A stretch of 64,000 nucleotides of DNA from Bilabrum cf. latius (GCA_965178125.1 OZ237772.1:248001-312000), one strand, 5' to 3'. Shown: positions 1 to 64,000, counted from the stretch's first letter. Notes: generated by a model from the letters alone, not told the origin. Made by a program: numbers and translations.

Positions 1-824
1 CCCTGCACGTACGGCTTGAAAGCCTCGTACGGGCCCTGTCGCTGGGGCATCTACGGACTCGTGAACCAGCAGCCTGCGGTGTGACGAGTGAATGGCAGGG
101 GTGGTATGTTGTGACGAGTGCGTGGACGCTTCCCATCCCATCAGACTGCAAGAAACGCCAGTCTGGTGGGATGCAGCGATGCAGCGCGTCGCTTTTCAGG
201 AAGCGCGCGCTGGCTATGACCCCAGAGCAGATGATGATAGTCTACACGCGCACATGCATCCAACGTTTTTTTTATAAATTCCCTCTCACCGTTGTGGTAG
301 CCGTTTTCAGGCTTGCATGGGTGTGTCAGATTGCCGGTTGCCTCGCCCAGCTCCGTGTGCCGGTGGCAGTCATCGTAGAGAACAAGACCCACCTTAATGC
401 CGTACTGGCTCGCGATCTCGATGGTCTTGTCGGTGGCCGCAAACAGGGTCTTCCCTTCGTCTTTGCGGAAGATGTGCGAGTGCAGAAAGAGCCGGATGGT
501 GTTGTAGCCCAGGACCTTTGAGGCGGCCGACAGGTCGGAATGTACCTGGTCCCAGAACTGGTCAGGATACGCAAGCCAGGCGTTACCTCCCGCTAAGGAA
601 GGAGTGTATTCGGCTCCAAACCACTGATGGGTGTCGTAAGGAGCTCCTGTTGGGGGGCGAGGAGTGTCGGCGCAGTTGGATCCTCCAACCGTTGCGGTCT
701 CGTACGGGAACCTCCCGTCGGTGGCAGCCGTGTAATGCGCGGCGAATCCAATCAGTCCAATGCATGCGATTGCGTGCTTCACAGACTTCATGATATATTC
801 GAAAGAGACTGCTGCAGTCGACAC
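1..824 (-). CDS. Secreted glycoside hydrolase, GH5-like TIM barrel (3' partial; GT-AG intron 74-289)
   Basis: Signal-like N-terminus; GYNTIRLFLHS and GLVLYDDC motifs; splicing gtgag...cgcag joins HNG to CWFTSP(TAG)MPQRQGPYEAFKPYVQG in frame. Confidence 0.65.
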
Positions 825-1281
825 TGCGAAGAAAGCAACGTTGAACGGGGGCGTGTTAGAGCCGAACTTTGCCAGCCAAATATACTAAAAGTAGTATGCG
901 AGACTCGCTGCAACACATGTCAAGCTACAAGTAGAGGAGCTTTACAGGCCACCAAATATTGCAGCAACCAAACCGATATGGCGCTGCATGCTCTATCGCA
1001 CCAGTCGTACGCAGGTACTAGGTGGTAAGAGAATGCTCGTTGCCCAACAATGAATGCCTCACAGTCTAATTATGCGAACCAGGTGCTATGTGCGACCCTC
1101 GCTGGTTGTGCTGAGCAAGAAATGCATTTTGCGCCCAGTTGCACTAGGCCTACGGCTTCCGGCTTCGCTGCCATCGACGCGCCGACACATTTAACGAACT
1201 TTCTGGCGGCCATTGGCATTGCAAGGCAATCCTGCTTAATTATCACAGTCTTTCTCGTGGTCTAGCGGGCATCGATTGGCA

Positions 1282-3597
1282 ATGCGATCGAAGAAGAGCG
1301 CCCGAGAGCTCGAGTCAGATGGATCCGCACTTCAAGGCTCCATCAACCAGGGTGCAGGATGCCCTCCCTGCTCCCCAGCCAGAATCATTGTTGATATCGA
1401 TGAACCATAGGGTCTGTCGAAGATGGGGTTCGGGGAGGCCATCGCGGACGACTACTAGAGACGGTGTGTTCACTTCGTGTCCGACTACTGGGGTTCGGAC
1501 GTGTGGACAGGGCTGACGGCATCGAGTACCATCACTATATTTCTAGCAACATTTGCGTCTACTGTTGCGCTGAGCGAGCTCGCGCGGTAGACTTGCGGGC
1601 AGTACATTGGGGCCACTGAGTACCTGCTGCTCAACAGCGTGGCTGGTATTATCCATTCAATTTTTGGGTGCCAGCCGTTCCTAGTGCTTCGTCCCACCGG
1701 ACCGATCACTTCGTTTATTCAGGAGATCTACAAGCTCTCCCTGCAGCTGGGCGTTTCGTTCCTGCCGTTCATGAGCTGGATCGGGCTCTTTGTGGGAATC
1801 TACATGTTGCTCGTTGCCGTGTTTGGGGGCTCCCACTACATCACATACTTGACGCGATTCGGTCACGACATGTTTGCTTTTTTTGTGTGCACGATATACA
1901 TCGTGGACGGCGTGCAGAACACGGCGAACCGCTTCGCCGTCGACCCGTTCGCAGAGGCTCTGTTCGAGCTGCTCATCTTTTTGCTCGTCGTGGCACTTGC
2001 TCTGTTTTGGTCGCAAGCCCAGGACTGGTCCACGGGTACGAAGGCCGTCCGCATCGTTACGGTGGAACTGGCGCTCACAGCAGCTGTCCTGGTGGGTGTT
2101 GCCGTGAGCTACTCGACGAATAGAACCGATGTGAACCGAGTGCTGATGCCTTCCTCCTTCTCGCCCACCGGATTCCGAGTCCCTCTGCCCGTCAACGAAT
2201 CGGGATCGGCTCCGAGTCCGCACGACCCCGACCCGGACCCGGACAAAGACTATCATCACATCCCGCGGCCCTGGTTTGTTGGCCTGCAGGCCGGGGGCAG
2301 GTGGGCGCCAGAGTCCGAGGCGGACAGGTGGAGGGGCAACGATGGTCGCGGTGCGGGTGGTGTGACGAGTACTGATGGCGTGACGAGTGAGGTCTGGGAG
2401 GGATTGCCGGGCAGCTCGGCGACGCCCAGCTGGCTGCCGGGCGTGGCGGCAGTTGCGGCCATCCCAGTGGCTGCGTGGTTCTACGTAGACCAGAACATGA
2501 GCAGCCTCTTGACCCAGACGCCCACCAGGGGACTCAGGAAAGGCTCGTACTACTCCTCTAGCTTCCTTGTTATGGCTATCCTCAACATGGTGGCTCCCAT
2601 GTTTGGCCTGCCCTTCGTGACTGGCAGCTTGCCGCACAGCCCCTAGTTCGCCATCGCGCTGACAGATGACCCCAACCAGCACAGGGACGATGAGGACAGC
2701 AAAGCATCGGAACTCGGGCAAGCCGCATCTTTGTCTTCGCATGCTGACAGTGAATAGACCGGTACTATTCGCAAGAGAATCTCAGTGCACGGTACCTATG
2801 AGATGGTGGACGAGCACGGCAAGTGGAGAGATACGGGAGAACCCGCCCCCCAGGGGATTTCACCCCCCGGTGCGGGGGCACCGTAGGTTGCAACCGCAGC
2901 CATCTAGAAGGAGGGAGCACCTCCTCAGAAGCGCGTGCACGAAAACAGGTGGGCGCCCATCCTCATGTACCTTCTGATCGGCCTGACACTCACCGTGCCA
3001 AGCGTGCTCACTGCCATTCCGGACGGGGCTGTGAATGGCATCCTGACGTACGTTGGGCTTGCAGGGCTATTTGTGGACAATGACCTGTACACCAGGATGT
3101 GGCTGCTGTTCGGGACCCCCACTCCAAAGCAGAGGAAAGAGCTCCCTTTCACTGACGAGCGGGTGGTGACCCGCTGGAAGATGCACCAGTTCACGGCCAT
3201 CCAGGTGCTTTTGATCGGAGCTAGCTGGGGCATCAAGGTCAGTCCCGCGGGTCTGGCATTCCCAATTGTAGTGTGCTGTTTCGTGCCGATCCGTGCGTAT
3301 TTGCTCCCGATGCTTTTCTCCGAGGAGGAGCTGGAGGCTCTGGATCGCGAGGGCGAATACGAGGAAATCGTGCCTTCACACCACCACCACAATCATCCGC
3401 AGCAGGATGACATTGGGGACGATGACCGTACTGGTGGGGTCACAGGTCCAATTGATGGCTTGCCCCGCGGTTCTGGTGGGCATGGAAGGCGCGCAACGGG
3501 TAGAGATTGGGTGTCTGCCGGTGATGAGGACGGGGGTCTTGATGACGGTTCAGATGCAAAGCCATCGACCCCGCTGATCTCAAGTAACGGGCGGTGA
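1282..3597 (+). CDS. SLC4-family bicarbonate/borate transporter (771 aa with TAG=Gln)
   Basis: One continuous frame across 7 TAG codons ending at TGA; motifs GCQPFLVLRPTGP, YLTRF, YVDQN, LRKGSYY, FGLPFVTGSLPHSP(Q)F, VHENR. Confidence 0.9.
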
Positions 3598-4067
3598 TTA
3601 GAGCCTAGGGGTTTTGGAAATTTCTTGGCAATTATTTGCATTATTTTCTTGTGTTTCGACTTATGCTTACCTGTAGAGCAAACGTCAAGGCACACGATAC
3701 AATGTACTCTTCGTGCGGCGTCGTGACGAGTGCGGAAGCTTCGCGGAAAGCTCTTCTCAACGGCAAGCATCCCTCGAGCATACACGCGTGCTGTCTGGCA
3801 AATAAGGAAAAAAATGATAACTCCGATTGTTTTTTGCGCTATCCCGGCCCTTGCTTTTCAGTAGCATCTCCAGGTCCTCGAGGAAGCATCGTCACTTATT
3901 GAAGCAAGGGTGAGGCAAACACCAATGCCTGCACTGATGTTCAATTAATCCTATGCTTAACCACACCAGTATAATGAATATATGCCTGTCCCCACGGTTT
4001 ATGGAGATATGGGGCTTGCAATTTTCGAAAACGTGCGATTGAGGTTTGCTCCTTACCCGCTCGCTCG

Positions 4068-4371
4068 TTGCAGATCCTCGATCGAATGCCAGGTTTCTCT
4101 GGCATAGTCTCGAGCAATGCGCGTAGACTTGACCAGCATGTATCTGGAAGTCAGGAGCTCCGCAAACATACGGATCGGGTTGCTGCGCTCACCAAAGACG
4201 ACCCGTCGGCCTACTGCAAGCAGCACCCGGAAGCTGGCTGCTGCAAGCAGCTCCAGCCGGTGCTTGACGAGTGCGCGCCCTACTTTGGCAAAGACCCTAG
4301 CCCGCAGAAACTGTGTCCTTCCGACTGCGCCGCCAAGCTTCGTGTCCTGGCAAAGAGCCTCCCTGCCAGCG
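4068..4371 (+). pseudogene. 5' part of a host Cys-rich protein gene interrupted by the virophage insertion
   Basis: Frame ...KLRVLAKSLPAS rejoins in frame with GERDGVCASAIQG... at 29188 after removing the element and one CAGCG; true start or upstream exon uncertain. Confidence 0.75.
4367..4371 (+). repeat. Target site duplication, left copy (CAGCG)
   Basis: CAGCG directly precedes TG at 4372 and directly follows CA at 29182. Confidence 0.9.
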
Positions 4372-4472
4372 TGTTATCCGCCAAAATGTGTGTAGTTTTT
4401 ATATAAGTAAACTCTATTTCTACTATATAGTAGAAATAGAGTTATCATAACTCCACATTTTGGCGGATAACA
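4372..4472. other. Left terminal 101-bp imperfect hairpin
   Basis: TGTTATCCGCCAAAATGTG/CACATTTTGGCGGATAACA outer stem, perfect inner palindrome AACTCTATTTCTACTATATAGTAGAAATAGAGTT, asymmetric internal loop. Confidence 0.92.
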
Positions 4473-5904
4473 TAAGAGGTCAATATTAACCACTTCACAA
4501 CATCTTAAGCCGTAGTCCTTCATAATGTCCTTCACTTGAACATAATAATTTAATAGCTATTTATTCATATATCTACCTAATTTAATACCTTCGCGCCGTT
4601 AATGTCTATCTGTTAGACCTTTACTTTACTTAATCTGTTGAGTGAATCCCTAGCCTAAGTCTTAGGATATGCCCGCCCGAAATTGCGGAAATATATAGTC
4701 ATTTAAGAATATATGTTCGCAATTCTGGGCGCGTAGGTGTATTGAGTTTTATATTATGATTTGGTTTTAAGTATCAATTGACATTTACCACTTTAGAAAA
4801 TAACTAAATAAATACTTAAAGAGATTGACAGAAGTATTAAAGTCTTTTTAATACTTCCAATGAAAAATTTAAATTAATAAATAAAACTAAACTAATATAT
4901 CAACTTAATTTATCTCTTTTTTTATTACTTGTCAATCTATACTTAAATAATTGAATATTTAAATATAACTAGAAGGAGATATTAATCACTTTATAAAGTC
5001 TTTTATATGTCATCTCTTCAAAACTTCAAATATAAGGGTATCCCCTTAAAAATACATTCTTTTATCTATCGCCCGAAATTGCGGTAATATTATAGCTATT
5101 CAAGATATATTTCTGCAATTCTGGGCGCGTAGGTGTATTGATTTTTATTTTTCATAATTCTTTAAATATGTTAAAGTCCTTTGTTTGAGTATATGATATA
5201 AAGGAATACAAAGCGGGATAACTTAAAAATGATAAATGTTTTGACGATGACTTTAAAATGACTCAATGAACTGGTTTATGTCAAGTGTATTACTTTGAAA
5301 TGATTAATCACTAGATTAAATGGAAAATATAGGATAATAAAATATGGTATAGTATAATACTAGCGCCCGAAATTGCGGTAATATATTAGGATATTAAGAT
5401 ATATTGTCGCAATTCTGGGCGCGTAGGTGTATTGAGTTTTATATTTTGTTAATTTTGACATAGTTATCTTATAGAGGTGTAATTTTGTAATAAAGATATT
5501 TCTAGTATGTGCTATATTAAATGTCCAGAAATGACGGCCCGAAATTGCGGAAATATATTAGGATATTAAGAGATATTGTCGCAATTCTGGGCGCGTAGGT
5601 GTCTTCAATAATTAATAATCAACTACTTCTTTATTTTGATTAATTTTTTTGACTTACCGTTCATTTTATTGACCACTTAACGGGATATCACAAAAAGACT
5701 TAACCACTTGACGAGATATTTTAAAATAACTAATAATAAATATGACCGCCCCAAATTGTATCTCCAGATATGACCGCCCCAAATTGTATCTCCAGATATG
5801 ACCGCCCCAAATTGCGGAAATATATAAGTATCAAGAAAATTATGTTTGCAATTCTGGGCGCTCACCCGTATTCAATTTTACATATTCACTAACTCATACC
5901 ACTT
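4372..5904 (+). repeat. Left terminal inverted repeat (1533 bp)
   Basis: Reverse complement of 27678-29182 apart from the asymmetric hairpin bulges and one extra 28-bp unit. Confidence 0.92.
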
Positions 5905-7562: not shown

Positions 7563-9218
7563 ATGACTAATAAAGGCAAGACATACACTAGAGGTAAAAT
7601 ATCTTACACGTATGGTGATGAACCGACAAAAAATCAAAAAGATAGTGATAATTTAGAAGCCACTATTAAGGGACTACTTGATAAAGGATTTGAAGAGGTA
7701 CCAACTACCAAAGCAAGTATTAAAAAAATACCTTTATATTCTTATGTATCTTATGTAAGTAATATCAAGGGAAAGCCACTATTTAGAAGAGGTGGGGTAA
7801 TTAACTCAATATAGAAGGATGGAGACTATTTCACTTTATATAACTTAGTGAGTCGTGTTCATTTTAGCGTTCAATAGTCTAACCTAGTTCGTCTTTTTTA
7901 TAAGATGACTAAAGCTTAGACGAAAAAACTTAATAAACCAACCGGTAAATTAATTGAAGTAGAAGATGAGGACGACAAAGACAAATTTAATTATAAACCA
8001 ATATTAAAGAAACTATATTATGAAGAAGGTAATGTAGTCAGTCGTGATGCGTTATATGACCTAGCTAGACAAAAAGATAAACGTATTAAAAGACGACAAG
8101 TAGAAAAGTGGTTAAATAACTAGATGCTCCACCAATTGACCAAAAAACGACCTAAACAGTCAGCAGTAAGTTCTTTTGTACCTACTAAGCCTTTCTCAAT
8201 TTACGCCTTGGACTTAATAGACATGCAAAAGTATTCAGACACTAATGACGGCTATAATTGGATATTAAATATAATGGATATATTCACAAAATACCTATGG
8301 AGTATTTCATTAAAAGATAAGACATTAGTTAATATAATTCGTGAGATGAAGAAACTATTTAAGAAACCTAATTGGAGAAAACCGACTGTTATGTTAAGTG
8401 ATAATGAGTTTAATAAAGAGGCATATATTAAATTTATGAATGACAATGACATAAAACCACTATTCACCATCGCAGGAAATCCATAGTCTAATGGTGCAGT
8501 TGAAAGACTTAATAGGACTATAAAAGAATAGATTAGAAAAGACTTTGCTATTAAGAATGACAGTGATGGTGTTTGGCATACGTCATTATAGAGACTAGTA
8601 AGAGCATATAATAAGAGAAAACACAACACTATAGGAATGTCTCCACTAGAAGCAATGAAACCCGAAAATTTAGAAGTAGTTAGATCTAGAATTGAAAATA
8701 AGAAATTATCAAATAATTTTGACGGGAATGATAAAGATCTTAATGTAGGGGATAGAGTTAGAGTATTACTTGAGAAGAACAAGTTTAAAGGAAATTTATT
8801 TAATTGGTCTAGAGAAGTCTTCACTGTTAGATAGAAGACCAAACCAAGAAATCCTAAGTAGAGGATTAAATATAAAGTAATGGACAAAGAGGGAGAACCT
8901 CTTACTGGATTCTTTAATGCTTCACAGTTATAGAAAATAGACAATGTAGAACACGAAGATAAGGTAAATGATGACATAGACAAGGAAAGTGAAGAGCCTG
9001 AAATTGATAATGTTGAAGGTTTAGAAGTAGAACCAGACACAATAGAGAAGTTTTTAGATAAAAGACAAAATAAAGATAGACTTATTGAATACTTAGTCAA
9101 ATATAAGGGATATTCTAATAAGTTTAATGAATGGATTACCCGTAAGAAATTAGAATAGGATTATGGGAAAGACCAAATACGACCACTTGCGAAAGACTAT
9201 TCTGATAGATAGAGATAA
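7563..9218 (+). CDS. Retroviral-type (rve) DDE integrase with C-terminal chromodomain (551 aa)
   Basis: Single frame through ~12 TAG codons; YALDLIDM, MLSDNEF, NP(TAG=Q)SNGAVERLNRTIK; chromo-like IEKFLDKR...EYLVKYKGYSNKFNEW; TAA stop. Confidence 0.95.
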
Positions 9219-9448
9219 TTAATCTAGTAATATACTTTATGGCATAATACCAGCGCCCCAAATTGCGATAATATATTAGGATATTAAGATATATTTCCGC
9301 AATTCTGGGCGCGTAGGTGTATTGATTTTTATAATTTTATCATTTTATGTTAGCCAGTGTATAGATACGACTTTTGAAATATTAATTTTTTCTAGTATTT
9401 ACCATATTAATATAAAACAAAGTCAAAGAAATTATTTATAATAAGTAT

Positions 9449-11280: not shown

Positions 11281-11436
11281 TTCTATATATATATAGTAAA
11301 TATTTTTTGGCGGAATAATTAAACTTAGGATCTAACCGCCCGAAATTGCGGAAATATTATAGCTATTCAAGATATATTTGTGCAATTCTGGGCGCGTAGG
11401 CGTATTGACTTTTGTATTATTTTGTATTTATTTGTA

Positions 11437-12075
11437 TTATATTTGGTACCCTAACTAGAGGCAATTCCTCAATTTATCGTGAAGCTATTCGTAAGTATTA
11501 TAAATGTAATAGCTAGAAGGGTTCAACTCTTTGATATAAGAGTTACGGTCTTCTAACATAGACTTCTATTTATCTACTTTCTAATTCTTTAAAGTCTTCT
11601 AGAATAGTGAATTAGATGGAAGACATACAACTATACTTTCTTTTTTAAATAACTCATTAGCTAGACTTAACTCTTTAGTAAAGAATATTACTCTCTTCTC
11701 GCTACCTTCATTCAACCAGTTATCTTTTACCCATTGAAGGGCTTCTTTACTGGCTTTTCTATTAAGTATATTATAATTACCCCAATCACTTTTTAACTTA
11801 CATTCGTCTAGTTTCATAAGTAATTCGGGCTCCTAGACATATACTCCTAGAGTACTATCTAAATCAACAAGTAAACAGTCTTTAGAACTAGACCGTAATA
11901 TTTGACAAGCGGTAGACTTACCACTACCTTCAGGCACACAGATACATATTTTTTTACGTTTATGTAAAGGTTTATCCCATAACCACTACCAACAAGACAT
12001 ACCACCAGAGTATGCTAGAGGTAGTAAGACACTTAAACCTCCTACAACGACACTGCTTGAACTGATTCCATCCAT
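11437..12075 (-). CDS. P-loop NTPase/kinase-like protein with hydrophobic N-terminus (212 aa)
   Basis: ICICVPEGSGKST followed by LLVDLD; continuous with TAG=Gln; TAA stop. Confidence 0.65.
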
Positions 12076-12841: not shown

Positions 12842-13084
12842 TACTTATATTATATTAGCTAGACTAGATATTTTTTTTTTAAATTACGAGATTTTAAAAA
12901 GTTAGTAGTATAAGATATAGTATAATACTAGCGCCCCAAATTGCGATAATATATTAGGATATTAAGATATATTTCCGCAATTCTGGGCGCGTAGGCGTAT
13001 TGATTTTTATAATTTAGTCATTTTTAATATAGCCACCTCTTACAATGTAATATTTTTAAATTAAAATATTATAGTATATACCAT

Positions 13085-18462: not shown

Positions 18463-19011
18463 ATGGATATAACCACTGCATTAAGTCCTGAAGAGGTACA
18501 AAGACTATACTTTACATTTACAAAGTAGCATATACCAGTTATAATGTATGAAGAAATAAGTGATACTAATAACATCAGACAATTTCTAGATGAAAATCCT
18601 TTATTTGTCCTTTATTATCCTAACTTAGTAGAAGGAGCAACAATGAGCGGTCATTATACTGCGGTCATATTTAATAAATCAAAGAATACTCTTTATTTTT
18701 GGGATAGTTATGGTCAATTACCTGATACTCATATTCCAGTCGTAGGAGGAGTCATAGACCCATAGAAGCTATATGATAGAAGTAGTCTTCTAATAGATCA
18801 CGTATTAGATGCTGGTATTAATGTTGACTATTCAAATCAAAAGAATCAATTAATATCAAATAACTCTGCCACATGCGGTCGGTGGAGTGTGCTCAGACTT
18901 CTCTTTCATAATTTAACGAATGATTAGTTTAATAGTCAATTAAAGAAGGCTTTTAAAAAGTATGGAGGAGGACTAGATAATGATGAACTTATTACTTTGA
19001 TAATTAGTTAA
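18463..19011 (+). CDS. Virion maturation cysteine protease (adenain/Ulp1-like)
   Basis: GHYTAV, YFWDSYG and NQ......ATCGRW catalytic motifs; sits between ATPase and penton. Confidence 0.92.
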
Positions 19012-22227: not shown

Positions 22228-22384
22228 GTCGTAAATTATTAATTAATATTTAAAAGTTATAAATATTGACTAAATTTAAAAACTCAATACGGGTACGCGC
22301 CCAGAATTGCGAAAATATATCTTGAATAGCTATAATATTACCGCAATTTGGGGCGGTCATACCTTAAGACTAGTTTAAATATTA

Positions 22385-45384: not shown

Positions 45385-45639
45385 CGCAGAAGTAGATTGC
45401 GACAGACCCGAGACTTGATCCGGATGTGCACCAGATTTGGGTGTGCTTCTTTCCTTTAACTCCCAACTCAGGTCTGAAACACACGCTTCGTACCAACTTC
45501 GCAAGGCTTCTGTGGTACAATACCCTACTACCGGCCTCGGGCCTGCAAAATAAGATGGATAAGAAAGCGAGCAAAGGTTTCCACTCGAATTGTAACGTGC
45601 AAATGCAGGCGACTGTCGGTCGCAACGCCACTCTGTTCA

Positions 45640-47982: not shown

Positions 47983-48130
47983 AGAACTAATGAACTGACA
48001 ATCGATTTGCTGCAGCGAACGATTCCCGGTTCCGGTATTGGCATCCGCCCAACCTCGCTCCTGTTATTGAGCCTAAACTGCACAATGGCAATAGCCGCGC
48101 TATTTCAACGCGTGCCAGTTATGCTACTAT

Positions 48131-51100: not shown

Positions 51101-52777
51101 GGATGCCTGGCGGGCCAGCTTTGAGAGGCTGCTGGTGCCTGACGACACTCTCTTCATCTTCGATTTCATCCGACGGAAGGCCGTGTGCCCGCTGCCCACG
51201 CTGTCAGTCCCCGCTGACCCGGCGTGGTGCGAGCCCGGGCTTTGCTGCCCATAGTGCTGTCCCCCGGTTGTTGCTGCTGCTGCTGCTGCTGCGGCTGCAT
51301 ACGACGCGGTTGATCCGTGCGGCGAAGGCACAGCGGCTGCGACAGCCGAAGCGGCCTCACTCTAGTCCTGGTACCCACCGCCGGCCGCGACGATACCAGG
51401 GTGGGTTAGTGCGCCGGTTGCAACCGCCACCCTTGCCTCCGGCCGGGCGTGGATGCTGCCCGTACCCGGCATCAGGCTAGACCCGCCCGACTCGGAGCCG
51501 ATATCATCCCCGCCGTCTCCGCCTCCTGAGCCAGCCGCCCTGCCAGCGCCCGGCACCTCTGGTTCTCGCATCCTCTGAGGGCCCGGCATCGCGGGGTTAA
51601 GGGAGGGGGCGCGGGCGCCGCCGCGTGTGGCGGTTCCGCTGACGTGGGCGGGCGCGGCGCCGCTCTGCGGAACATGTTCCGCTGCGTCAACACCGAGGGG
51701 AGCGTTCCCGTCGGCGTGTTGCGCGGCGCCTGCCTGGTGCACCAGCGATGCTGCCGCGATCCGAGACGACCTGGAGGTTGCAACCGACCGGATGCTGCCG
51801 CGCCCGCTTGCACCACCGTGCAGTGAACCCTCAGGGGAGGGCAGATTGTTCTTTGCAGGTCCCACGGGATTCCCCTGCCAGGTGACTCCCATGTTCTGGC
51901 GCTGCCTCTACAGCTGAGACTGGGCATGAGACTGCTGCTACTGCTGCTGCTGCTTTGCGCGGCGTCTTGGCGGCATGGGTGCAGGGATGCCGTGTGCGCT
52001 TGGTGCTCCAGCACCCGCCGCCTGCATCGCGATGGCATTGAGATCCTCCTGGGACCGACCCCGGCGAGAGGTGCCCCCCGCTCCCTTGGATCCCGCACCC
52101 GCTCTGCGCCTCCTGCGGCCAGACGACGTCCCGGCAGTACCAGCACTGGTGCCGGTGCCGATGCCGGTGCCTCCGGAAGAGCTCGGCTGCTGCTGCCCGC
52201 CCCTGCCCTGTCCTGCGACCATTCCGGGATCGGCTTCCCCCGGAGACTGAGAGGATCGCCCCTCTGATTGCTCCATGCCTTCTCGCTCCAGGACTTCACG
52301 CGCGAACAGTCGAGCCAGGTTGCTGATGAGGTGCTGGGTCGGATCGGCCGGGTCGGCGGCTGGTGGGGCACCGAATGATCCCGGAGCACCGCTCATCGAA
52401 TCGCTCGAAGGGTGCTATCCGGGAATGCCATCAAATGATCCTGGTTCGCGTATTCCGTCCTGCACTGGTACCGGCGGGGATTCAGGACCTGCTCGTTGGC
52501 GAGCGAGCATCGCTTCGCCTGGGCGAGATGAAGTTCTGTCGGCCTGCATCGCCGAATTGCGAGGTCTAGTCATGCCGTGATCGACGGATGGATTAGACCG
52601 CCTTACTCGCTCAGGAATGTTCGGATTGCTGTTGTTCGTGCCCGCAGGTGGAGATGGTGGCGGGGTGCGACCCGGCGCTCGCCTTCCTTGCAAAGCAGTT
52701 TCTGGCGCTGGCCGTCTTCCTCCTTCGGCACGGCTGCCGCGCGGCCTGGTCCTTCCGTCGCTTCTACCTGGTTGCAT
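48131..52777 (-). CDS. Long low-complexity Gly/Ser/Ala/Arg-rich hypothetical protein (~1550 aa)
   Basis: Six listed ORFs in one frame joined by TAG, some inside poly-Q tracts; TAA stop. Confidence 0.65.
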
Positions 52778-53969
52778 GCGAATCGTTGTGCAGCCAGCGC
52801 TCTTGCTAGCAGGACTCTGCTTTATGCAGGCAGAATCGATTCCGACGAGTCCAGTCCACTGCTTCCTTTCTCGAGGTCTGCAAAGAATAAACCTGCGGTA
52901 CGTGATCTAACAACAGTAAATTAAAGTTAGTTGTCAATGGACATGGCTACAATGAGAGATGATGTGCCGCTTCATGCACGGCCAACTAGGAAAATGCAGC
53001 GCTGCTGCACCCTGTTCCAAATGTCGATGCGGCCTGGAACCTTAACTGACGCAAGTATTGCATGCAGTCAAACGAGCCGGTCAGCAGCCAATTGCTCATA
53101 CACACTCCACTTGACTACACGATTATCGGCGCGGGGCACAGAAACCAAGAGGCCAATGGCTGAGCGTCGAGAAAAACGTTGCCAACCAATCGACTTAATT
53201 GTCACTGGCACAACCAAACTACTGGCGAAGCAAATTTTACTGTTCCAGAACATACCGTAACGTACTCTAGTTTCCTTCCAAGCTCTCTGAACACACAACA
53301 TAGGGAATGACAGAATGCAGATAGCAGGCAAGACTCTTTTATAGTTCACAGCTTTCACGACATGAACCACAACAAGAACTGACCAATGCGTGTAAATACA
53401 CAACAACAACCAATTAGGATGGGATCCAGTGACTTCTATGCAATGCATCGTTCAGTTTGCAGGATATGTCTCGGGAGTACTGCAGCGCAGCAGACCGATC
53501 TTTGCACCGATGCCCCATATCTCTCAGTCACTCCTATAACAACATATTAATACCATCCTATTTATAAACAGCATAATATCGTTGGTAATTCAATCCGGCA
53601 AAGGACCAGGATAGAAAACAGCATGGGCAAGGCATCGAGGGATTTCCACCAATAGCTGCTCATGACGCCAGTTCTGTACTAATAGTGCATCCGGTAAAGA
53701 GTTCTCACTTAGATTATAACACGTAAAATATATACCTGAACTAGCGCTTAATATATCGCCTAGCACCCGCACAGTTTGCCAGAGAAGTCGTCGTGTCACT
53801 GGCGAGACAGCGGAACCATTCTTTAGGTTCGCTACGAACCTGTTTTGGCTCGATGGCCCGTCGCCGCGCGCGCGGACAGTTCCAGAACGATCGCACACAA
53901 GTGCCTCTGCCAGCGTGTTGTTAAGCCATTGCGCCAGTATATTTAATTTAGTAATTCTTTTCGTCTAGG

Positions 53970-54896
53970 ATGCCGATCGTGTATTCTGTGATAGCGCGGG
54001 GCAAGGTTGTGCTTGCTGAGTACTCTGCTCAGACTGGCAACTTTCCCACCGTCACTAGGGTACTCTTGGAAAAGATTGAACCCAAAGACTAGAAAATGAG
54101 CTACACATATGACCAGTGAGCGTTCTACGCCGTCCATCCATTCGCATGCCAATCAGTGGATGACATGATGCTGTTGATCACGCGCTGCATGTACAGTCAA
54201 TGCCGTCCAAGGTCTATGTACTGCTGTGGAAAATCGGTTGCTGGCAATGATTTGTATCAGTTCGGCTGCCTGACACTACGGCCCATATGCGTTCGCATTG
54301 GTGCCTTCGAAGCAGACCTGGGACTCGGCACGCACGCCACATACGGATGGACACGGACCGACCCAATTGCTCCCACTCGCAGGTACATTTTCAACTTTGA
54401 GGTGGACGACAATATCACGTACTTGTGCCTGACGGACCAGGACGAGAGCCGAAAGAGGCGGGTGGCCTTCCAATTCCTCGCCGAGATGAAGCAGGCATTT
54501 AGGAGGCAGTTCGGCCAGCGGCCCCACACTGCCATCGCCTTCTCTCTGAACTCCGAGTTCCAGTCCACCATGGCGGACTTGATCCAGCGCTTCAACAGCG
54601 GAGAGGGGGACGCCTTCAGCCGCGTGCAGGGCAAGCTGGACAACGTGAAGGACGTCATGATGCAGAACATCGACAAGGTGCTAGACAGGGGCGAGAGAGT
54701 CGAGCTGCTCGTCGAGAAGACAGACGAGCTCTCCAGGTCTGCGCAGAAATTCCAGTACTCGAGCCGGAACTTGAAGAACGCCATGTGGTGCCGCAACGTC
54801 AAGATGTGGCTGCTCATCATCGGTATCGTGCTCGTCATCATCTACTTCATCGTGAGCTTCATCTGCGGGTTCAACTTCAAGAAGTGCAGGAAGTGA
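53970..54896 (+). CDS. VAMP7: Longin R-SNARE VAMP7 (exons 53970-54115, 54383-54896)
   Basis: MPIVYSVIARGKVVLAEY...GNF..V longin start, PKD(TAG)KMSYTYD, GT-AG intron, synaptobrevin VKDVMMQNIDKVLDRGERVELL, C-terminal TM. Confidence 0.92.
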
Positions 54897-55384
54897 GGGA
54901 ATCGGCTGGTTTGACGACTGCATCGTGTGACGAGTACACTGCGGAGGGAACGATGGTGTGTCCCGGGGGTTGGTCCCTGGAGCGCACCATGTGGATCCCA
55001 ATCTGATCGTGCGATGGTGATGATGATGGTGACGATGATGTCGACTATGCGTGCTGTGACGCGTGCTGGTGGCTGCCTGCGTGCCGCGCTCGGGATTGGG
55101 AATCAAGAGGCAAGAGGGGGTATGGGCGTTTTTGGCTTACCGCTCTTGCCTCTGGGTGGTGATCGCGGCAGGTGGGTGTGGCAAACTACACGCTACCTAA
55201 CCGATGTGTTTTATTCTAGTGTTGGCTGTGACTGAGGTACTGGCTTCTGTCCATACAACATATTCTTGCTTTTGTGCGAAGTAAACCTGCCTTGGCATTG
55301 GTCAGCATGCAAGTCCAGCCCACAGCATGCGAGGTCAGCCCAAAAACTGCTCCTGTGATCGGCTGTCACTGGCACAACATCTGC

Positions 55385-58300
55385 TCAGCGCCCACCCGTT
55401 TGCGCCGCGATCGCCGCCCTGGCCACCTCTTGTTCCCCGCGACCAGCACCCCCGAAAGACCCTCCCACAAGTCCCCTGCCCGACGCCCCCCGAGGCCGCA
55501 CCAGACGCTCGCTCGAACCCACGCGCACGATCCTGCCGGAACCGTTGTTCCCTGCATTGCCAGCATTGCCCTCTCCACTCTTCCCAGAACGGCTCGACGC
55601 CTCCCTATTGTGACTCCGAATCCCGGCACCCGAGACGGACCCCTCGCCCCCTACAGCCCCGGCGCCCCCAGGGATGCCGTCCTCTCCGGTCTACACTTCC
55701 CCTCCCCCTTCCACTTCCCCCCTCACCTCGGATCTTGCACTAGCGCCCGCCCCTGCTCCTGCCCCTGCCCCTGCACCTGTCCCTGTCCCTGCTCCTGTCT
55801 CGCCTCCGGAACCTGCCAAGCCACCCCACGGCGACCCTACGCCGCTGACGGCCTCCCTCTCCCGCTGCTTCTGCTCAAGCTCCGAGGACTGGATCCGGCG
55901 CCGCGCAGCGGAGCCAGATGGAGACATGGCGATCTTCGCTGGGCTAGCGGCACCGGTTGTTCTCTCGACCGCCGGAGGTTCCGCATTTCGACTGCCGCCG
56001 CGCACCGGGGAAGAATCGCCAGACATGCCCGTCACCATGCTCAACGGATAGGTTCCGTCCGTGGCTGCGGAACCTCGTCGCCGCGAGCTTCGGCGAGAGG
56101 GAACCTGCGGAACCATCTGCTGCTCCTTTAAGCCCACCCCCCCTCCCCTGCTACTGGATCTGCCCCTCCCCGCGCCCACCCCGCTGCCCCGGCTGCTCCT
56201 GCTGCCGCTCCTGCTCTCGGACCTCTTCTGCTGCCTTCGCCTCCGCCTCTCCTCGGCGGTTTCGTCCCGTCGCAATCCACCCCTGGACTGGCGACCACGG
56301 TGGTGATCCGATCTCTCGACCCCCTGACCCCCACGCGGGGACAAACCCCCGGGAGCCAAACCCCTCACCCCCCCTCCCCCTCCCATGTGCCTCTGTAGCA
56401 CCTTCGGATCCAGCCCAAGCCCGCCCCCCATCCCGATCGTCCTACCAGACGCAGTGCGGCCGTGCATGCCCCTGCCTCCACCCATGCCCAGCCCCATGCC
56501 CATTCCCATTCCCATTCCGAGTCGGGAGGAGGCACCAGGCAGGGCACCGGCGCGGCCGAATGTGTTGCTGCCACCGCGACGGTGGTCCGTGCTCCGATCG
56601 TCGCCGCGCATTCGAGGTTCCGCAACAGTGGCGCCGCGCAATCCTGGTTCCGCCCCGCTGCTGCCCCTCACGGCAGACCTGCCTGCGCCCACCCACCCCC
56701 TCTCCACCGAACCGCCCATCGTCCCGCCGCGCCCATTCCCGTTCCCATTCGCGAACGATCCGCCGCGGCCGCTTCTTGCTCCGTTGATGTTGCCGAATCT
56801 GCCGCTGGTATCTCCTCCGGCACCATCCTCCTCCACCTCCTGCAGTACCGCCCCCAGTGCGGCCTCGTCGAAGCTTCTGCCCCACCTCGGTGGCCCCCTA
56901 GCTCCACCATTGACCACCCCGACATTGGCCACCCCGCTGGTCCCTGTCCCGCTGCTGCTGCTGCCCGTCCGGAACATCCCCCCCATCCCCATCGATTGAA
57001 CCCCCCTTGGGGTCTGCGAGAAAGAACCCCCGAAGGACCCCCGTCCGCGGGACCATGACCCCCGGGGTGCCCTACCAATCGCACTCGTCACACCAACCTA
57101 GCCACCCATCGACTTTCCTTCCCCCCCGGACCCGTTGCCAGCACCAGCACCAGCACTGATCCCGCCGCTGTATGTGTCACCCCCTGTCAGGCTGTTGTTC
57201 GCCAGGCGCATGTCCGGGGGCTTGTACGCTCCCAGCAGCGGAGTCAGTCCGGTTCGGGACCCTGTGTTCCCTGGACTGTCCTCAACCCACTCGTCACTCC
57301 CTTCCAGAGAGCCCCCCAGGAGTTTCTTCTCGCCCACGCGGCCCCGGCCCCGGCCCCGGCCCCGTACGCAGCAGCAGCAGCAAGTCTGCGCACAGCTGCA
57401 CTCGTCACGTGACGAAACCCCGTCCTCACTCGTCACACCGTCTCTGCCTCCCCCGCAGCCCACACAGGCGCCGACTACAGCGCCCATGAGCATGCCGCCA
57501 CCCGCCGCTATGGCCGCGAAGGGCCACGGCACCTCGTTGTACCCACCAAACAGACCGTGGTGCCCGTTGTTCTCCGGCTCGCAGTCCGCTGGCAGCGCGA
57601 ACACGGGCGAGTCGAGCACCGCGAGTTTCGGGTCTAGTCGATCCAGCCCCTCGTACATGAAGCATTCCGTCCTCCCGCCGCACCCGAACGCGAGGGGTGC
57701 CTCGAGGCACTGAATCGCGAAGGAATCCCCGGTCACGTACCCGGAATTGGAATTGGAATCGGAATTGAAATCGGATCTGCTGCCGGATGAGAGCAGCTGC
57801 CCACGGGCCCGGCCTGCACCACCGTGCAGTGCGCTTGCATCCCGCTGCGCCACGCGGAGCATTACCGGCACTGCCGTGGAGGGGATCGAAGGGTCCTTAG
57901 CACTCGTCACACCTCCACTCGTCACTCCTTTATGGTTCTCGGGCGCGACCCACAGGTCCCTGCAGTTGACCGGGTCCTGCCACCTCGCGGTTGCAACCTC
58001 GTATGTGGCCTCCCCCCGGCCCCCCGCCAGCCCCGTCGTCAGGTTGACCGTCTGGTTGCCCATGAAGGACACTGAAACAGAAGGGTCCCTCAGCCATGCG
58101 AGGTCCGCCCCGGCCACGCCCAGCGACCACGTCCCGGCGGCGCAAGTGACAAACGATCCACCGGTGGATTCCGATCCGAACGCCGACCCGCCAGGGTCGC
58201 CGTCCTTGGTCGCAAACTGCGCGTTGAGGCTGGACGGCCGCTGCGGCGAGAGTGCAGTGAACTGCCGCGCACTGCCGTTCGTGTACTGCACCGACACCGC

Positions 58301-58762
58301 GGATGCCACTGCTGCCGAAGGCTCGCTGGCTCCGACGAACCCTCCCAGTCCGGAGGGCCTAGCAGGAATCGGCTGGCTGCTGTTGTAGGGAACACGAGGG
58401 AACATGGTGTCCACTCTCCATGCGAAATAGCCACCCTGCGGAGCTCCCGGGTACACGCCTCGGTTGCCCACCCACGCTATGTGCCTGGTGTGGCTGTCTG
58501 CCGGCGGCAGTGGCTGCGGGTCACGCAGCCGCTGGGTGGATGTGCTGCTTGCATTGTCTTGTATTATGCCGGACCAAGTGTCGCTTCCATCGATGATGCT
58601 CTCTATGAGCTCGGCCGACCACTGGAACATGTGGTACCTGGCCACAAACTCTGTTGCGATCACCGGGCGATCAGGCGTTAAGTCGCATACTGCTTGCTGC
58701 TGCACTATTACCATAAATAACATGCAAGCGCACCATGCGAATCCTGATCCATGGCATGCCAT
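55385..58762 (-). CDS. Type I membrane protein with Cys-containing ectodomain and Gly-rich cytoplasmic tail (~1125 aa)
   Basis: Signal-like N-terminus, TM WPFAAIAAGGGMLMGAVVGACV; ORFs 57098-58762 and 55691-57091 joined by TAG; TGA stop. Confidence 0.6.
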
Positions 58763-59043
58763 TGATTTCGGTCACGCGCAGTTGCCGTTCAGAGCTCGTC
58801 CAACGCGGGCAAGGTATGGTGTATTGACGGATCCCTTGCGTTAGATTCCCACCGATCAATTATGAAGAAATGAGATTTCCAGGCAGATGTGCGGATATGC
58901 TTGGTTGTGGGCCAGGAATCCGAGAGCAGGCGAAACAAATACCAGACATCGATGATGATGAGCGGCACGCAACAATGGCTCGGAGAGATCCAGCGATCCA
59001 TCGGGGCCCTTACTCGCCGCATTTACAAAAACGTCCACACACA

Positions 59044-61365
59044 ATGATGCGAGCTACATCTGCATTTATGCGCAGATCGGTGCGACTCGCTAGGCATCTT
59101 TCAGCCGCAGTTGGTCGTGGTGTTGCAACCCAGTTCGTCCGGGCGAGCACGCCAAAGGCAATTGCAACCGGTGCTGCAATTGCTGCGCTTGGCTCAGCGG
59201 CATCAACCAACGCATCGACTTTGGAATCAAACGATCTTTCGTCCGCGCCTGCTCGTGCGTTCCACCCGATTGTGGACAAGGCGCGCGACCGTGTCGAGTA
59301 CCAGCGGCCGGTGCCCTCGGACATCGCGGTGAGCCAGAGCGTGACACCTCTTCCCATCCGGAAAGTAGCGGAGGCCGTCGGAATATTGCCGTCAGAACTG
59401 ACCCCGTACGGCGATGACAAGGCGAAAGTGAGCCTCAACGTGCGCGAGCGCCTCTCCGGTGTCCCTGACGCCGACTATGTAGTAGTGACGGGAATCAATC
59501 CCACACCTCTGGGAGAAGGCAAGTCCACGACCGTGCTGGGCCTGGCACAGGCCCTAGCAGCTCACGAGGGCCTGAAATCATTCGCCTGCATCCGTCAGCC
59601 GTCCATGGGCCCCACCTTCGGGATCAAAGGCGGCGCTGCCGGTGGAGGGTACGCCCAGGTGGTCCCCATGGAGACGTTCAACCTGCACCTGACGGGCGAC
59701 CTCCACGCGATCGGGGCAGCCAATAACCTGCTTGCTGCGGCGCTGGACACGAGAATGTTCCACGAGACGTATCAGACGGACGAGCAGCTCTTCAATCGAC
59801 TTCTGCCCAAGCTCAGGGCAGGCGGCGGCTCCAAGTCGGCAGCTGCAAGCAAGGGGGGCAAAGGGGGGAGCGATGACCCCAACGGCGCCCCCGCCTCCTC
59901 GGCCACCCGCACGCGCAAGGTGGCTGAGACCATCCGCCGGAGGATCGAGCGGCTGTTCCCCGACAAACCGGAAGCACAGACCAACCCGGAAGTGCTGACG
60001 GAGGAGGAGCGAAGGCGGCTGGTGCGTCTCGACGTGGATCCATCCACCATCACGTGGCGGAGGGTGGTCGACATCTGCGACAGGCTGCTTCGGGGGATCA
60101 CTGTGGGGCAGGGACCGAAGGAGAAGAAGAGGGGTGTGCGCGAGACCGGCTTCGACATCACGGTGGCGAGCGAGGTGATGGCCGTGCTGGCACTAGCGAC
60201 CTCTTTGGACGATTTGAGGGATCGGTTGGGCCGCATGGTGGTGGGCTACTCCAGAGACGGAGAGCCAGTGACCGCAGAAGACGTGGGCTGTGCTGGTGCC
60301 ATGGCCATTTTGCTCAAGGACAGCATGGAGCCGACGCTCATGCAGACCGTGGAGGGCTCCCCCGTCTTCGTGCACTGCGGGCCCTTCGCTAATATCGCGC
60401 ACGGCAACTCGAGCATCGTGGCGGATCAGATCGCTCTCAAGCTCGCGGGCCAGGAGAACGGCGTGGTCGTGACCGAGGCGGGATTCGGAGCCGATATTGG
60501 CGCGGAGAAGTTCTTCGACATCAAGTGCAGGTACAGCGGGCTGCGGCCCCAGGCGGCGGTCATCGTCGCCACTGTGCGTGCGCTCAAGACGCACGGGGGG
60601 GGGCCTAAGGTGGTGAGCGGCCGCCCGCTGGACCCGGTGTACAAGCAGGAGAACCTTGAGTTGCTGCAGAAGGGCTGCTCCAACCTGGGTAAGCACATCG
60701 AGAACATCCGAAAATTCGGTGTGACGCCCATCGTGGCGGTCAACCGGTTCACCACGGACACAGACGCCGAGGTGGCCCTGGTGCAGGAATTTGCGACCAG
60801 GAATGGGGCAGCCGCCGCAGTGGAATGCAACCACTGGTCGGACGGAGGGAAGGGCGCCAGGGAGCTGGCAAGGGAGGTGAAGAGGGCCTGCGAGACGAGG
60901 CGGGCAGCGGACAAGGCATCTGCCAGCTGGACCAGCAAGAGCAAGAGCAAGAGCAAGGGCGAGGGGGAGGAGACCGACGAGGAAGGTTCCTTCAGGTTCC
61001 TTTACCCCGATTCGATGCCCCTGAAGAACAAGATCGAGACGGTAGCAAAGGAGATCTACGGAGCCGACGGCGTTACCTACTCTGACGACGCCAGCAGGCT
61101 ACTGGACAGCTACCAGGCAGGGGGTCACGGCCACCTGCCCGTGTGCATCGCCAAGACACACCTGAGTCTCAGCGCGGACCCGGCGCTTAAGGGCAGGCCC
61201 ACGGGTTTTAAGGTGCATGTGAGGGATGTGAGGCTGAGCGCCGGTGCGGGGTTTGTGTACCCTCTGCTTGGTGACATCATGACGATCCCTGGGCTGCCCA
61301 CGAGGCCTGGTTTCATCGACATGGAGCTTGACACCAAGACTGGGCGGATGGAGGGGCTATTCTGA
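59044..61365 (+). CDS. FTHFS: Formate--tetrahydrofolate ligase, probably mitochondrion-targeted
   Basis: [56 protein letters not shown]; Arg/Ala-rich presequence from 59044 (frame is open from 58870). Confidence 0.95.
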
Positions 61366-61525
61366 ATCTGCGAGATGTGTGGCCGGTATGGATGGTATCA
61401 AAATAGTGTGCATATAGCATCACGAATCGAATATCACGATTATATACGAAGGTAGGCTAGAGTGTTTGGGCCCAGCAGCTGAATAGCAAGCCACTGCCAG
61501 CCTAGGCGTGATTTTGCCACGCCTA

Positions 61526-62485
61526 TTATCGCGCCTGCATGCCAACTACTAGCACATTTCCTACTATCACCATCGCCAGGTCGTGCAGCGCATTTCGGAT
61601 CATGACACGCGGCACCCAGGACTGAGCCAGGTCAACAGCCATTGGGCGGAGCGCAAGCAACCACGCGACCCAGGTCCCCAATGCACATGCAATACCACCC
61701 AACCACAGTACAACCAGCATCCGTGATTTGGTTGGTTCGCTTGCAGGTGGAGTGCTTTGGCAAGCGGACACTGTCAGCAAGCGAGCAGTGCACTTGCTCA
61801 GCCACGCGAGCACGCCATGCTCCCATGCACTCTCACATCGTAGCAATTGAAGCACTGCCCAAGCCACGCACACAAACGATAAAATTGATACCAAACATTC
61901 TTCGCCCGTGTGGAACAAAAGGCAGGTCGCGGATGCGACGTACGACGCAATGAATTGGAACGTCAGCGGAGCTAGCGAACCCCACACCCTGTGCTTTTCT
62001 TGCGCACTAGCACGCGTATGCTGCACCTAACTCTGAGGTGAAACATCAGGGTTGACTGCAGCAGCGATGCTAGTTTTCCTTGCTGCTTCACCGCTGGTCT
62101 ATGTCTCCATCCTTGCACGCACTGCTGCCAACGCAGCAGGCCACATGCCACAGAACAACACCAACAAGTGTCCAGACGGGTCAAAAACCCATCCAGATGG
62201 ATTATTCAAACGCTATATGTGCTTGATCCAGCGCACAGTTGGGGCTAATACCAAAAAGCTGCCGATCGAGGCCGTAATGTCGTCGCTGGTTATGTTGCCG
62301 CAAGCAGGCAGCGACGCTAGTATCCATGGCAACGGGCCAAAGAGTCCGGTAAACCTGCCGATTAGTAATGCCGCGCTCCAACCGACGTTTGATTCGAACG
62401 AGGCTTGAGAGAATACTCGAAGCACAGACAGCGAAAGTGCAACCGCCGGGAAGATCAACCCAAACTGCCCTTTATACGCCAGCAT
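61526..62485 (-). CDS. FIT (fat storage-inducing transmembrane, FITM2/Scs3-like) family protein
   Basis: With TAG=Gln, ORFs 62213-62509 and 61526-62026 join; motifs GWVFDPSGHLLVL and ATCLLFHTGEE; multiple TM segments; TAA stop. Confidence 0.7.
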
Positions 62486-62663
62486 TGTACGCCACGCCGC
62501 GCTCAACAACTAAACAGGATATTTTACTGTGTACTCATAGTAAAGGTCCCGGTCAACAAACACTTAGCAGTGTGATAGATGACATTTGATTGCTGTCGTC
62601 ACAGCTGCCACTAGCACGCCGCGACTTTGTTGCAGCCTGGCGCAAACTAGTGAGCAAGCAAGC

Positions 62664-64000
62664 ATGGCTGCACGGATGCGACCGGACTATGACGATGATT
62701 TCTTCGGGTCGATGAGTGATGACGATGAAACAAGTGGGAAAGGCGATCTTTGGGGCGCAGATCGCGACAGGCAGGCGGCCACCGCTTCTGCAACCAAGGC
62801 AGCGTACAGAGAAGCAGCCGGTAATGCGAAAGAAAATGGAACCCAAGACGGATTTAATCAAGGATTCTCATCGGGTATGCGTATGGGCTTTGCTCGCGGT
62901 TTCGTACACCAAGCAGCGGTGTGAGAACAAGACGTGGCATTCGTGCAATCGAAAGAAGCATGCCTAGCGAGTTTGAAGTTTGAACAACGTTTCCTGATGT
63001 TCCAACTTGCGCAGATCTATGGCGCTTGCGTTGCGAGAAAGGCGACACTTGCATCCGTTGGCCATCGGGAGGGCGACCGAGCAGCTGCGGGCGCTCATGC
63101 TCGCCACTGCAACGAAGCACCGGTTGGGCACAGAAAGATACCCAGCAGCGGAACACGCCGTGCAATCTCTCATGAAACGATCAGCCCGACCCCCAATGAA
63201 CCTCATTGCGGAGGAAAGGAGGAAAACTGACGCGAAGAGGGAGGCAGCCGCGCTGGCGGGGGAGCAGGACTTCAGCCGGTGCACCGAGGTCGAGGCGGCC
63301 CGACTGGTTCATGAAGGTTCGCTGAAGCGTCTCCGCCAGGTCGCCGAGATGCACATGGAAGCAGTGGAGGAGATGGAGCGACCCGCTGAATCGGTGGCGG
63401 GTGGCGACGGCGCGGAGGCTGTCACCGGGAGTGGCGCACATGCGGCTGCTGGCGATACTGACTCGGCTGGTGCTGCTGCTGCAGATGGCTAGGCAGTGGG
63501 GGGCGCCAGTGGTGGTGCCGATAGTAGTGTGACGAGTGGAGCGGGGGAGGGTCTGGCAGCTCGGAGGGCGGCGAGACGACGGAAAGGGAGGGGTGGCGGG
63601 GCGGTTGCAACCGACGGTTCCGCTGGCGGCGCCGCCGGGCAGGCTACCCTGTCTCTGGATGGGGGTGCGGCGGCCGAGCCGTCAGACCCGGCACAAAGCA
63701 ACCCGCGTGGAAGTGCCAGTGGCAGTGCAGCAGCAGGTACTGCTGATTCTGATTCTACCGGCAAAGATGGGGATACATCGGTTAGTGCAGATGCAGCAAG
63801 TGCAGCTGAAACGGAATTGGCAGTGCCAGCCTCCAGGGTGGAAGCACTGGTCCAGCGGGTCGGTGCGCGGCGCCGCAACGCTGGACCTGCGGAACCAAGC
63901 GACCCACTCCTCCCTGCCCGGCTCGCCGGACTCCTCGCTTCAATACTGCAGCGGCTAGCGGGCGAATTGGTGGAAGACGGGGGCAAAGAGGATGTGTAGA
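62664..64000 (+). CDS. YAE1/LTO1-like (Yae1_N motif) protein, intron 62921-63014, 3' partial
   Basis: AYREAAGNAKENGTQDGFNQGFSSG motif; gtgaga...cgcag intron restores the frame into ORFs 63007 and 63496 via TAG. Confidence 0.6.

Follow-up and report, generated by a model that had tools for sequence, protein, structure and literature searches.

We analysed a stretch of 64,000 nucleotides from Bilabrum cf. latius (GCA_965178125.1 OZ237772.1:248001-312000), here called the window, which carries protein-coding genes of the host and, inserted into one of them, an integrated virophage-like element. The nuclear code of this host is very probably NCBI table 15, in which UAG is an ordinary glutamine codon and UAA and UGA are the sole terminators; table 15 differs from table 11 solely in that TAG is read as Q. 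An initial annotation of the same DNA had proposed that the host reads TAG as glutamine while TAA stays a stop, and this proposal is supported by gene models, by alignments and by contigs from other sequencing runs. Glutamine was found to be enriched at alignment columns that hold TAG, removal of TAG by splicing or editing was not seen in the compared contigs, and in-frame TAA is not equally common, with none in the 11,326 host codons and none in the 5,749 codons of the element.

Reassignment of the codons UAA and UAG is nearly always joint. Wobble constraints on tRNA and the joint recognition of both codons by the release factor eRF1 have been suggested as causes of this coupling. The lineages in which UAG alone has become glutamine are few, as the initial annotation held: PMC11687900 names Iotanema spirale, Protocruzia tuzeti and two phyllopharyngean ciliate lineages, and mentions UAG as leucine in a rhizarian, as serine in Scotinosphaera and also as glutamate. 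For the fornicate Iotanema spirale, the available text of Panek et al. (2017, PMC5304391) gives UAG as glutamine and UAA as the main terminator, states that only a tRNA whose anticodon is CUA reads UAG without reading UAA, and describes a T32G substitution in the GTS motif of eRF1.

In-frame TAG codons in host and element

Ten host gene models were built, starting at the first ATG where possible. They contain 70 in-frame TAG in 11,326 codons, distributed over nine of the ten models, beside 478 CAG and 102 CAA, and UAG thus provides about 11% of the host's glutamine codons. The 21 open reading frames (ORFs) of the element comprise 5,749 codons, among them 78 TAG (in 17 ORFs), 130 CAA and 11 CAG, a TAG share of 36% of the glutamine codons. 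Host and element together have 148 internal TAG, no internal TAA and no internal TGA.

The in-frame TAG codons that the initial annotation had reported inside two conserved host genes were located at 2644-2646, in the motif LPHSP[TAG]F of a gene of the SLC4 bicarbonate-transporter family, and at 54090-54092, in the motif EPKD[TAG]KMSY of VAMP7 exon 1, where it is the single in-frame TAG of the gene. The SLC4 gene has seven in all, at 1408, 1456, 1588, 2644, 2755, 2884 and 2905. The annotation had also pointed to TAG within poly-Q tracts and to a repeat copy with TAG in place of CAG, and both descriptions are accurate. At 51938-51940 the codons run CAG CAG CAG CAG TAG CAG CAG, and at 48557-48559 TAG lies beside a poly-Q run (AAG TAG CAG CAA CAG CAG CAG CAG). 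A giant coiled-coil gene contains a tandem repeat with a period of 1,533 nt, at about 34300-41400, one copy of which has TAG at 35725-35727 where its three sister copies have CAG (37258, 38791 and 40324), and two more TAG positions of this repeat are kept in all five copies. Both the difference between the repeat copies and the TAG in the poly-Q tracts can be derived from CAG by one C-to-T change.

Reading TAG as sense opens frames in both parts of the window. With standard decoding no ORF in the window exceeds the 2,441 aa of the repeat's antisense, and a frame of 4,930 codons on the - strand is opened only when TAG is sense. The element has one ORF of at least 300 aa under the standard code (302 aa) and seven with TAG as sense (3,662 aa in total), against two with TAA as sense (695 aa) and one with TGA as sense, while the triplet TAA is twice as common in it as TAG (1867 vs 972, both strands). 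In the host part, TGA-as-sense inflates ORFs too (64 ORFs), and ORF length is therefore a weaker test in this GC-rich DNA.

Gene ends and the role of TAA and TGA

Nine host models reach a stop, three at TAA and six at TGA, and neither triplet was found internally; the six stops listed in the initial annotation (TGA at 3597, 54896 and 61365; TAA at 30844, 48131 and 61526) all have the right coordinates. The ORFs of the element end in TAA in 14 cases and in TGA in seven (n=21). Over all 30 gene ends there are 17 TAA and 13 TGA, none of the 30 requires TAG, and internal TAA is absent from the 17,075 codons of the 64-kb window.

The best evidence for TAA staying a stop is the codon usage of the element, which favours codons ending in A (AAA 391 vs AAG 223, GAA 271 vs GAG 88, CAA 130 vs CAG 11). 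This bias would make a sense TAA common, and its absence from all 21 ORFs is consequently meaningful. Furthermore, the integrase of the element, at 551 aa, matches relatives of 554 and 548 aa from end to end, and residues 1-930 of its primase-polymerase/helicase (hereafter primase-helicase) match residues 3-932 of the database protein P0160, distant standard-code relatives being 902-958 aa long; these two proteins are therefore not cut short by TAA. In the host, the formate-tetrahydrofolate ligase (FTHFS) and VAMP7 have their TGA at the family-typical C-terminus.

Among the alternatives to table 15, the one that survives best, though we consider it improbable, is an ambiguous code in which UAG means glutamine internally and yet serves as a context-dependent terminator of some genes; context-dependent stops have been described in Condylostoma and in karyorelict ciliates. 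The gene ends examined number only 30, nine from the host and 21 from the element, a TAG terminator lying just ahead of TAA or TGA would escape notice where ORFs are defined with TAG as sense, and one host gene, coding for a FIT-like membrane protein, ends in TAA TAG. None of the ends supported by homologues (VAMP7, FTHFS, SLC4, integrase and primase-helicase) needs TAG, however, and the penultimate codon of the integrase, which is TAG, aligns with N and K of relatives of the same length and not with their ends.

A code in which UAA and UAG both mean glutamine, UAA being merely scarce in a GC-rich genome, is considerably harder to defend and in our judgement very improbable. CAA makes up 18% of the host's CAR codons (102/580), so that few TAA are expected anyway, and after two of the host's three TAA stops another stop comes within 3-7 codons. 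Against this, the host ratio of CAG to CAA (478:102) predicts about 15 internal TAA beside the 70 TAG, and none was observed; the 32%-GC element, which prefers A-ending codons, has its 78 TAG and yet no internal TAA; and reading TAA as sense leaves the frames of the element closed, 14 of its 21 ORFs ending in this triplet. Read-through of the FIT-like TAA at 61526 would continue for 70 codons to the next in-frame stop, at 61313, and would overrun the contigs of two other runs, X5 and X7, which end at 61438 and 61449.

The amino acid at TAG

Alignments of conserved proteins indicate which residue stands at TAG. The SLC4 protein was aligned with 23 homologues, 36-46% identical to it, and the column of TAG 2644 holds Q in 23/23. 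For the primase-helicase, 941 relatives were found at E<=0.001, of which the best 150 were aligned, leaving out P0160 (87% identical). Against a background of 3% Q, the columns of TAG 25393, 26068 and 25828 hold Q in 145/149, 132/147 and 80/148 of these relatives, and a tblastn comparison with 80 IMG/VR loci gave Q at the same three columns in 76/79, 71/79 and 33/80. One alignment of this protein (A1) shows an invariant Q580 and a Q355 conserved to at least 90%. The integrase stretch GNP[TAG]SNGAVE is matched by GNPQSQALVE in 4pa1_A, a solved retroviral-type integrase in the PDB. The tblastn comparison covered 49 element ORFs, five of which matched the 80 loci (primase-helicase with 89 high-scoring pairs, the others with 4-13); the major capsid protein (MCP), penton and ATPase therefore contributed almost no TAG columns.

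Log-odds scores were also summed over the 23 TAG columns that are at least half occupied. Glutamine reached +11.6 nats, followed by K at -11.1, R at -11.2 and E at -16.8. As controls, CAA returned Q at +11.2 and CAG returned Q at +9.4, and nine other codons each returned their own residue.

That UAG is a sense codon for another residue, such as Leu, Lys or Glu, is thus scarcely credible. Two primase-helicase columns are rich in I and L, and several columns are rich in K/R or in E, as such a code would have them. Over all columns, by contrast, Q stands about 23 nats above K and R, with E lower still, Q prevails at the SLC4 column and at the three primase-helicase columns given above, and the replacement of TAG by CAG between repeat copies, together with TAG inside poly-Q, also speaks for glutamine.

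The protein database holds the window's own integrase of 551 aa as entry P0144, in which each of the 12 TAG positions reads Q, and some gene caller has therefore used TAG as Q on these contigs. Two full-length relatives of the integrase, P0145 (80% identical) and P0146 (76%), have Q at most TAG positions, as P0160 does for the primase-helicase. Relatives in the database at 76-87% identity show that sister elements exist in other assemblies.

TAG in transcript-like contigs

Contigs of four runs (X1, X5, X6 and X7, from three studies) were compared with positions 44001-64000, and over these 20 kb no compared contig has a differing letter or an indel. X1, which covers the range in two pieces, both long and collinear, is apparently the DNA source. 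The contigs of X5-X7, which come from two studies other than that of X1, are cut at gene borders (e.g. 45592-47971, 59021-61410 and 61438-62561), and a joint 54115>54383, which removes exactly the GT..AG intron of VAMP7 (54116-54382, 267 nt), occurs in contigs of X5, X6 and X7 and not in X1. The joined VAMP7 contigs of X6 and X7, about 1,120 nt long, carry the TAG at 54090-54092 with no other letters. Counting the pieces listed, at least 27 of the 30 in-frame TAG of 44001-64000 lie inside X5-X7 pieces with no other letters (X5 26, X6 10, X7 6). A gene with weak MRH/PRKCSH matches is represented by the X5 piece 45592-47971, with no other letters and no gaps, and the gene at 48131-52777 by pieces of X5, X6 and X7, again with no other letters. 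Since spliced contigs retain TAG unchanged, neither splicing nor editing takes it out.

Further contig joints, between 48.5, 50.9, 51.9, 56.2 and 63.5 kb, were considered as splicing and rejected: they lack GT..AG ends, have sides of 18-25 nt and sit at CAG or low-complexity repeats, and some are present in X1 too.

The weakest alternative, that the TAG sites go untranslated as pseudogene lesions, assembly errors or spliced or edited sites, can be set aside as barely conceivable: Bellas et al. (2023, PMC10120064) do describe endogenous viral elements whose stop codons were assembly artefacts, whereas here only one stop triplet is affected (148 TAG vs no TAA and no TGA), four runs from three studies agree without any other letter, the spliced VAMP7 contigs retain TAG, and in the element the 1.3-kb inverted ends are perfect and the genes intact and of full length.

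Points that weigh against table 15

Several observations count against reading the host code as table 15, or lessen the weight of what supports it. Apart from TAG 2644, the TAG codons of SLC4 are uninformative, three lying in inserts where homologues have no residues and three in variable columns (E-rich, R/K and R/D). Eight of the 11 TAG columns of the primase-helicase are variable and not dominated by Q, and two of these eight are hydrophobic (I 54 + L 47 of 137; L 69 + I 58 of 147), the second also by tblastn (L 41, I 24 of 78). The database proteins P0145, P0146 and P0160 may have been called with TAG as Q, and would hence not be independent support. The RNA status of X5-X7 is only a guess, X5 being flagged "probably DNA". 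Because the definition of an ORF excluded TAA and TGA, the absence of internal TAA is partly circular for those host genes that have no homologue or contig support. In the 64-kb window ARAGORN found no tRNA genes and Rfam no families, and neither a tRNA-Gln(CUA) nor eRF1 was seen there. Finally, the genome-wide scope of the code is an extrapolation from 64 kb.

The integrated element

The element (Table 1) differs sharply in base composition from its surroundings, with 32% GC at 4372-29182 against 56-63% GC at 1-4371 and 29183-64000. It has termini of the form TG..CA and a 5-bp target duplication (CAGCG). Its inverted ends, at least 1,333 nt long, show 100% identity, which makes the insertion look recent. 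When the element and one copy of CAGCG are removed, the empty site becomes a single host frame of 580 codons; the element thus landed in a host protein-coding gene.

Its gene content is virophage-like. The integrase has Pfam matches to rve (E=9.1e-8, at the cut-off) and Chromo (E=4.2e-7), and the MCP matches PF22031 MCP_V20_C (E=3.2e-7, 30.4 bits vs a cut-off of 27) with its C-terminal domain alone; close relatives of this MCP were found neither by a pattern search of IMG/VR nor by tblastn of a phage collection. Candidates for an ATPase (AAA_10 and AAA_22, about 1e-5) and for a cysteine protease (Peptidase_C57, E=0.0058) give weak matches under the cut-offs. The order ATPase, protease, penton-sized ORF, MCP would fit the virophage family. 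The element is thus an intact virophage-like insertion of recent date. In-frame TAG occurs in the primase-helicase match of none of the 80 IMG/VR relatives, and the recoding is therefore particular to the element's lineage, being the same as the code of its host.

Two further features of the element were noted. At both ends (4374-4470 and 29084-29180) a 17-nt inverted pair surrounds a 62-nt AT-rich spacer, which has the same orientation at the two ends and so breaks the long inverted repeat in the manner of a flip/flop segment or of a hairpin able to fold. Between the genes of the element, a sequence of about 100-190 nt is repeated in both orientations with 76-93% identity; it may serve as a common promoter or terminator module.

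Table 1. Position of the genes, the inserted element and the repeated sequences of the window.
Feature	Position	Strand	Remarks
SLC4/bicarbonate-transporter-family gene	1240-3597 / 1282-3597	+	Pfam PF00955 HCO3_cotransp E=2e-74; ends TGA
Host gene interrupted by the element	4086-4371 + 29188-30536	+	2 in-frame TAG; ends TGA
Integrated virophage-like element	4372-29182	.	24,811 bp; 32% GC; 21 ORFs
rve integrase with C-terminal chromodomain (element)	7563-9218	+	12 in-frame TAG; ends TAA
Virophage-type MCP (element)	20341-22227	+	6 in-frame TAG; ends TGA
Primase-polymerase/helicase (element)	24334-27132	-	Pfam Prim-Pol E=8.6e-14; 11 in-frame TAG; ends TAA
Recurring intergenic sequence (element)	5066-5520, 9221-9410, 11317-11437, 12883-13030, 19008-19213, 22258-22375, 23173-23291, 23771-23881, 28079-28488		
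Giant coiled-coil gene	30844-45384	-	4,846 codons from first ATG; 36 in-frame TAG; ends TAA
Gene with weak MRH/PRKCSH matches	45640-47982	-	11 in-frame TAG; ends TGA TGA
Low-complexity gene	48131-52777	-	6 in-frame TAG, 2 within poly-Q tracts; ends TAA
VAMP7 (longin SNARE)	53970-54115 + 54383-54896	+	Synaptobrevin E=1.1e-33, Longin E=3.2e-12; ends TGA
Low-complexity gene	55385-58762	-	2 in-frame TAG; ends TGA
Formate-tetrahydrofolate ligase (FTHFS)	58870-61365	+	Pfam PF01268 E=7.5e-241; no TAG; ends TGA
FIT-like membrane protein gene	61526-62485	-	3 in-frame TAG from first ATG; ends TAA
GTGACGAGT sites	81, 111, 2362, 2380, 3723, 46429, 46447, 48659, 49046, 49763, 50450, 54927, 57083, 57289, 57400, 57428, 57902, 57917, 63529		

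Host genes and affinity of the host

The closest relative of FTHFS, P0001, is 96% identical, and no other exceeds 62% identity. A tree of this family with 121 rows puts the window and P0001 on a long branch (0.67), near but outside rows labelled as stramenopiles, the rows near this pair being labelled Peronospora, Ascophyllum and MMETSP chrysophyte. The named relatives of SLC4 are diatoms and Symbiodinium, at 36-38% identity. Judged from these sequences, a stramenopile affinity of the host is possible. FTHFS also has an N-terminal extension of about 150 residues ahead of the Pfam domain, which it has in common with P0001 (769 aa).

The initial annotation had assigned a gene with the motif TSP[TAG] to glycoside hydrolase family GH5. 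The TAG is present in that motif, at 51-62 on the - strand, while the family label is weak: Pfam gives no match at E<=0.01, and the PDB a GH5_18 match with E=0.005 across 54 residues. The FIT-like gene scores 20.8 bits with the Pfam family FIT, slightly below the cut-off of 21.4. The MRH-like gene ends in a double stop, TGA TGA (45637-45642, - strand), beyond which the frame stays open into the upstream region of the next gene.

The 9-mer GTGACGAGT occurs 19 times in the host DNA, where 0.24 copies are expected, and is absent from the element. Of its 19 copies, 16 are in transcribed genes, on the sense strand, and copies are frequently paired, 15-30 nt apart; within coding sequence, 12 of 14 read V-T-S ("GVTS"), and those in SLC4 fall in a stretch that the homologues are without. 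A role of this 9-mer as 5' splice site of an intron was ruled out, as the X5 contig piece 57040-58885 crosses six copies with no gap.

Discussion

If the host uses table 15, UAG would be decoded by a tRNA-Gln(CUA), which pairs with UAG and not with UAA and would lie a single mutation away from tRNA-Gln(CUG), and eRF1 would have lost its affinity for UAG while retaining recognition of UAA and UGA; both steps are modelled on what Panek et al. (2017, PMC5304391) set out for such codes. The element would be translated on host ribosomes and is adapted to the host code; AT-rich as it is, it uses TAG more than CAG (78 vs 11).

Iotanema has the same codon table as the window and the same expected mechanism, a tRNA-Gln(CUA) with an eRF1 that does not bind UAG. 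It is, however, an anaerobic metamonad known from its transcriptome, whereas the host described here is represented by genomic DNA with 63% GC, has spliceosomal introns and carries an integrated virus that shares its code; the closest matches of its proteins, 36-62% identical, come from stramenopiles and other protists. Protocruzia tuzeti and the phyllopharyngean lineages likewise have the codon table found here (table 15). Nothing in the window points to a ciliate, however; 64 kb of 63%-GC DNA with a 15-kb gene would be unusual among ciliate genomes. A full-text search of the literature, mostly outside subscription journals (few of which were covered) and limited to main texts without supplements, found no UAG-only glutamine code in a GC-rich non-ciliate, no such nuclear code beyond Iotanema and the ciliates, and no virophage using a UAG-only glutamine code. 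With sequencing runs dated 2025, work on the organism may already be in progress.

Endogenous viral elements of Streblomastix strix use their host's code, in which TAA and TAG are glutamine (Bellas et al. 2023, PMC10120064). They are the only precedent that we found for an endogenous element in the recoded code of its host. These polinton-like or virophage-like elements, like the one described here, follow the non-standard code of their host, a sign of long association; they differ in that both UAR codons are glutamine in Streblomastix, whereas here it is UAG alone, in an element of virophage type (MCP_V20_C). Mavirus and the endogenous mavirus-like elements (EMALEs) of Cafeteria resemble the element as AT-rich insertions of 20-25 kb in a GC-rich host chromosome, which encode an rve integrase and a virophage capsid protein and have long inverted ends and a short target duplication. 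Unlike mavirus, the element gave no Pfam match to a protein-primed polymerase and has the primase-polymerase/helicase instead. Mavirus uses the standard code. Recoding of TAG to glutamine (table 15) is also described for crAss-like and other phages (PMC9523058); the virus then uses TAG as glutamine, as the element does, while here the host shares the code.

The new aspect is therefore not the codon table, which is already known, but a virophage-like element that shares the uncoupled code of its host; if this is true, it would be the first virophage known with a UAG-only reassigned code. We can go further only tentatively, with a proposal that we are slightly more inclined to doubt than to accept: the host may represent an unreported, deep-branching, GC-rich protist lineage, neither ciliate nor fornicate, which uncoupled UAG independently, with the virophage and an implied giant virus rewritten accordingly, so that the code would act as a barrier locking the three partners together. 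The giant virus enters this proposal by implication, because a virophage depends on one.

Each independent exception to the joint reassignment of UAA and UAG tests why the two codons are coupled. Genomic DNA exists for this host, so that the tRNA-Gln(CUA) gene and the changes in eRF1 would be directly readable; a reading of this kind was not possible for Iotanema, according to the available text of PMC5304391. In practical terms, gene callers that use the standard code would fragment the genes of such an organism, TAG being present in frame in most host models and element ORFs alike (9/10 and 17/21). An intact, recent element written in this code shows that mobile viruses track the code of their host, and this tracking bears on host range and on the practice of dismissing "stop-riddled" endogenous viruses as dead.

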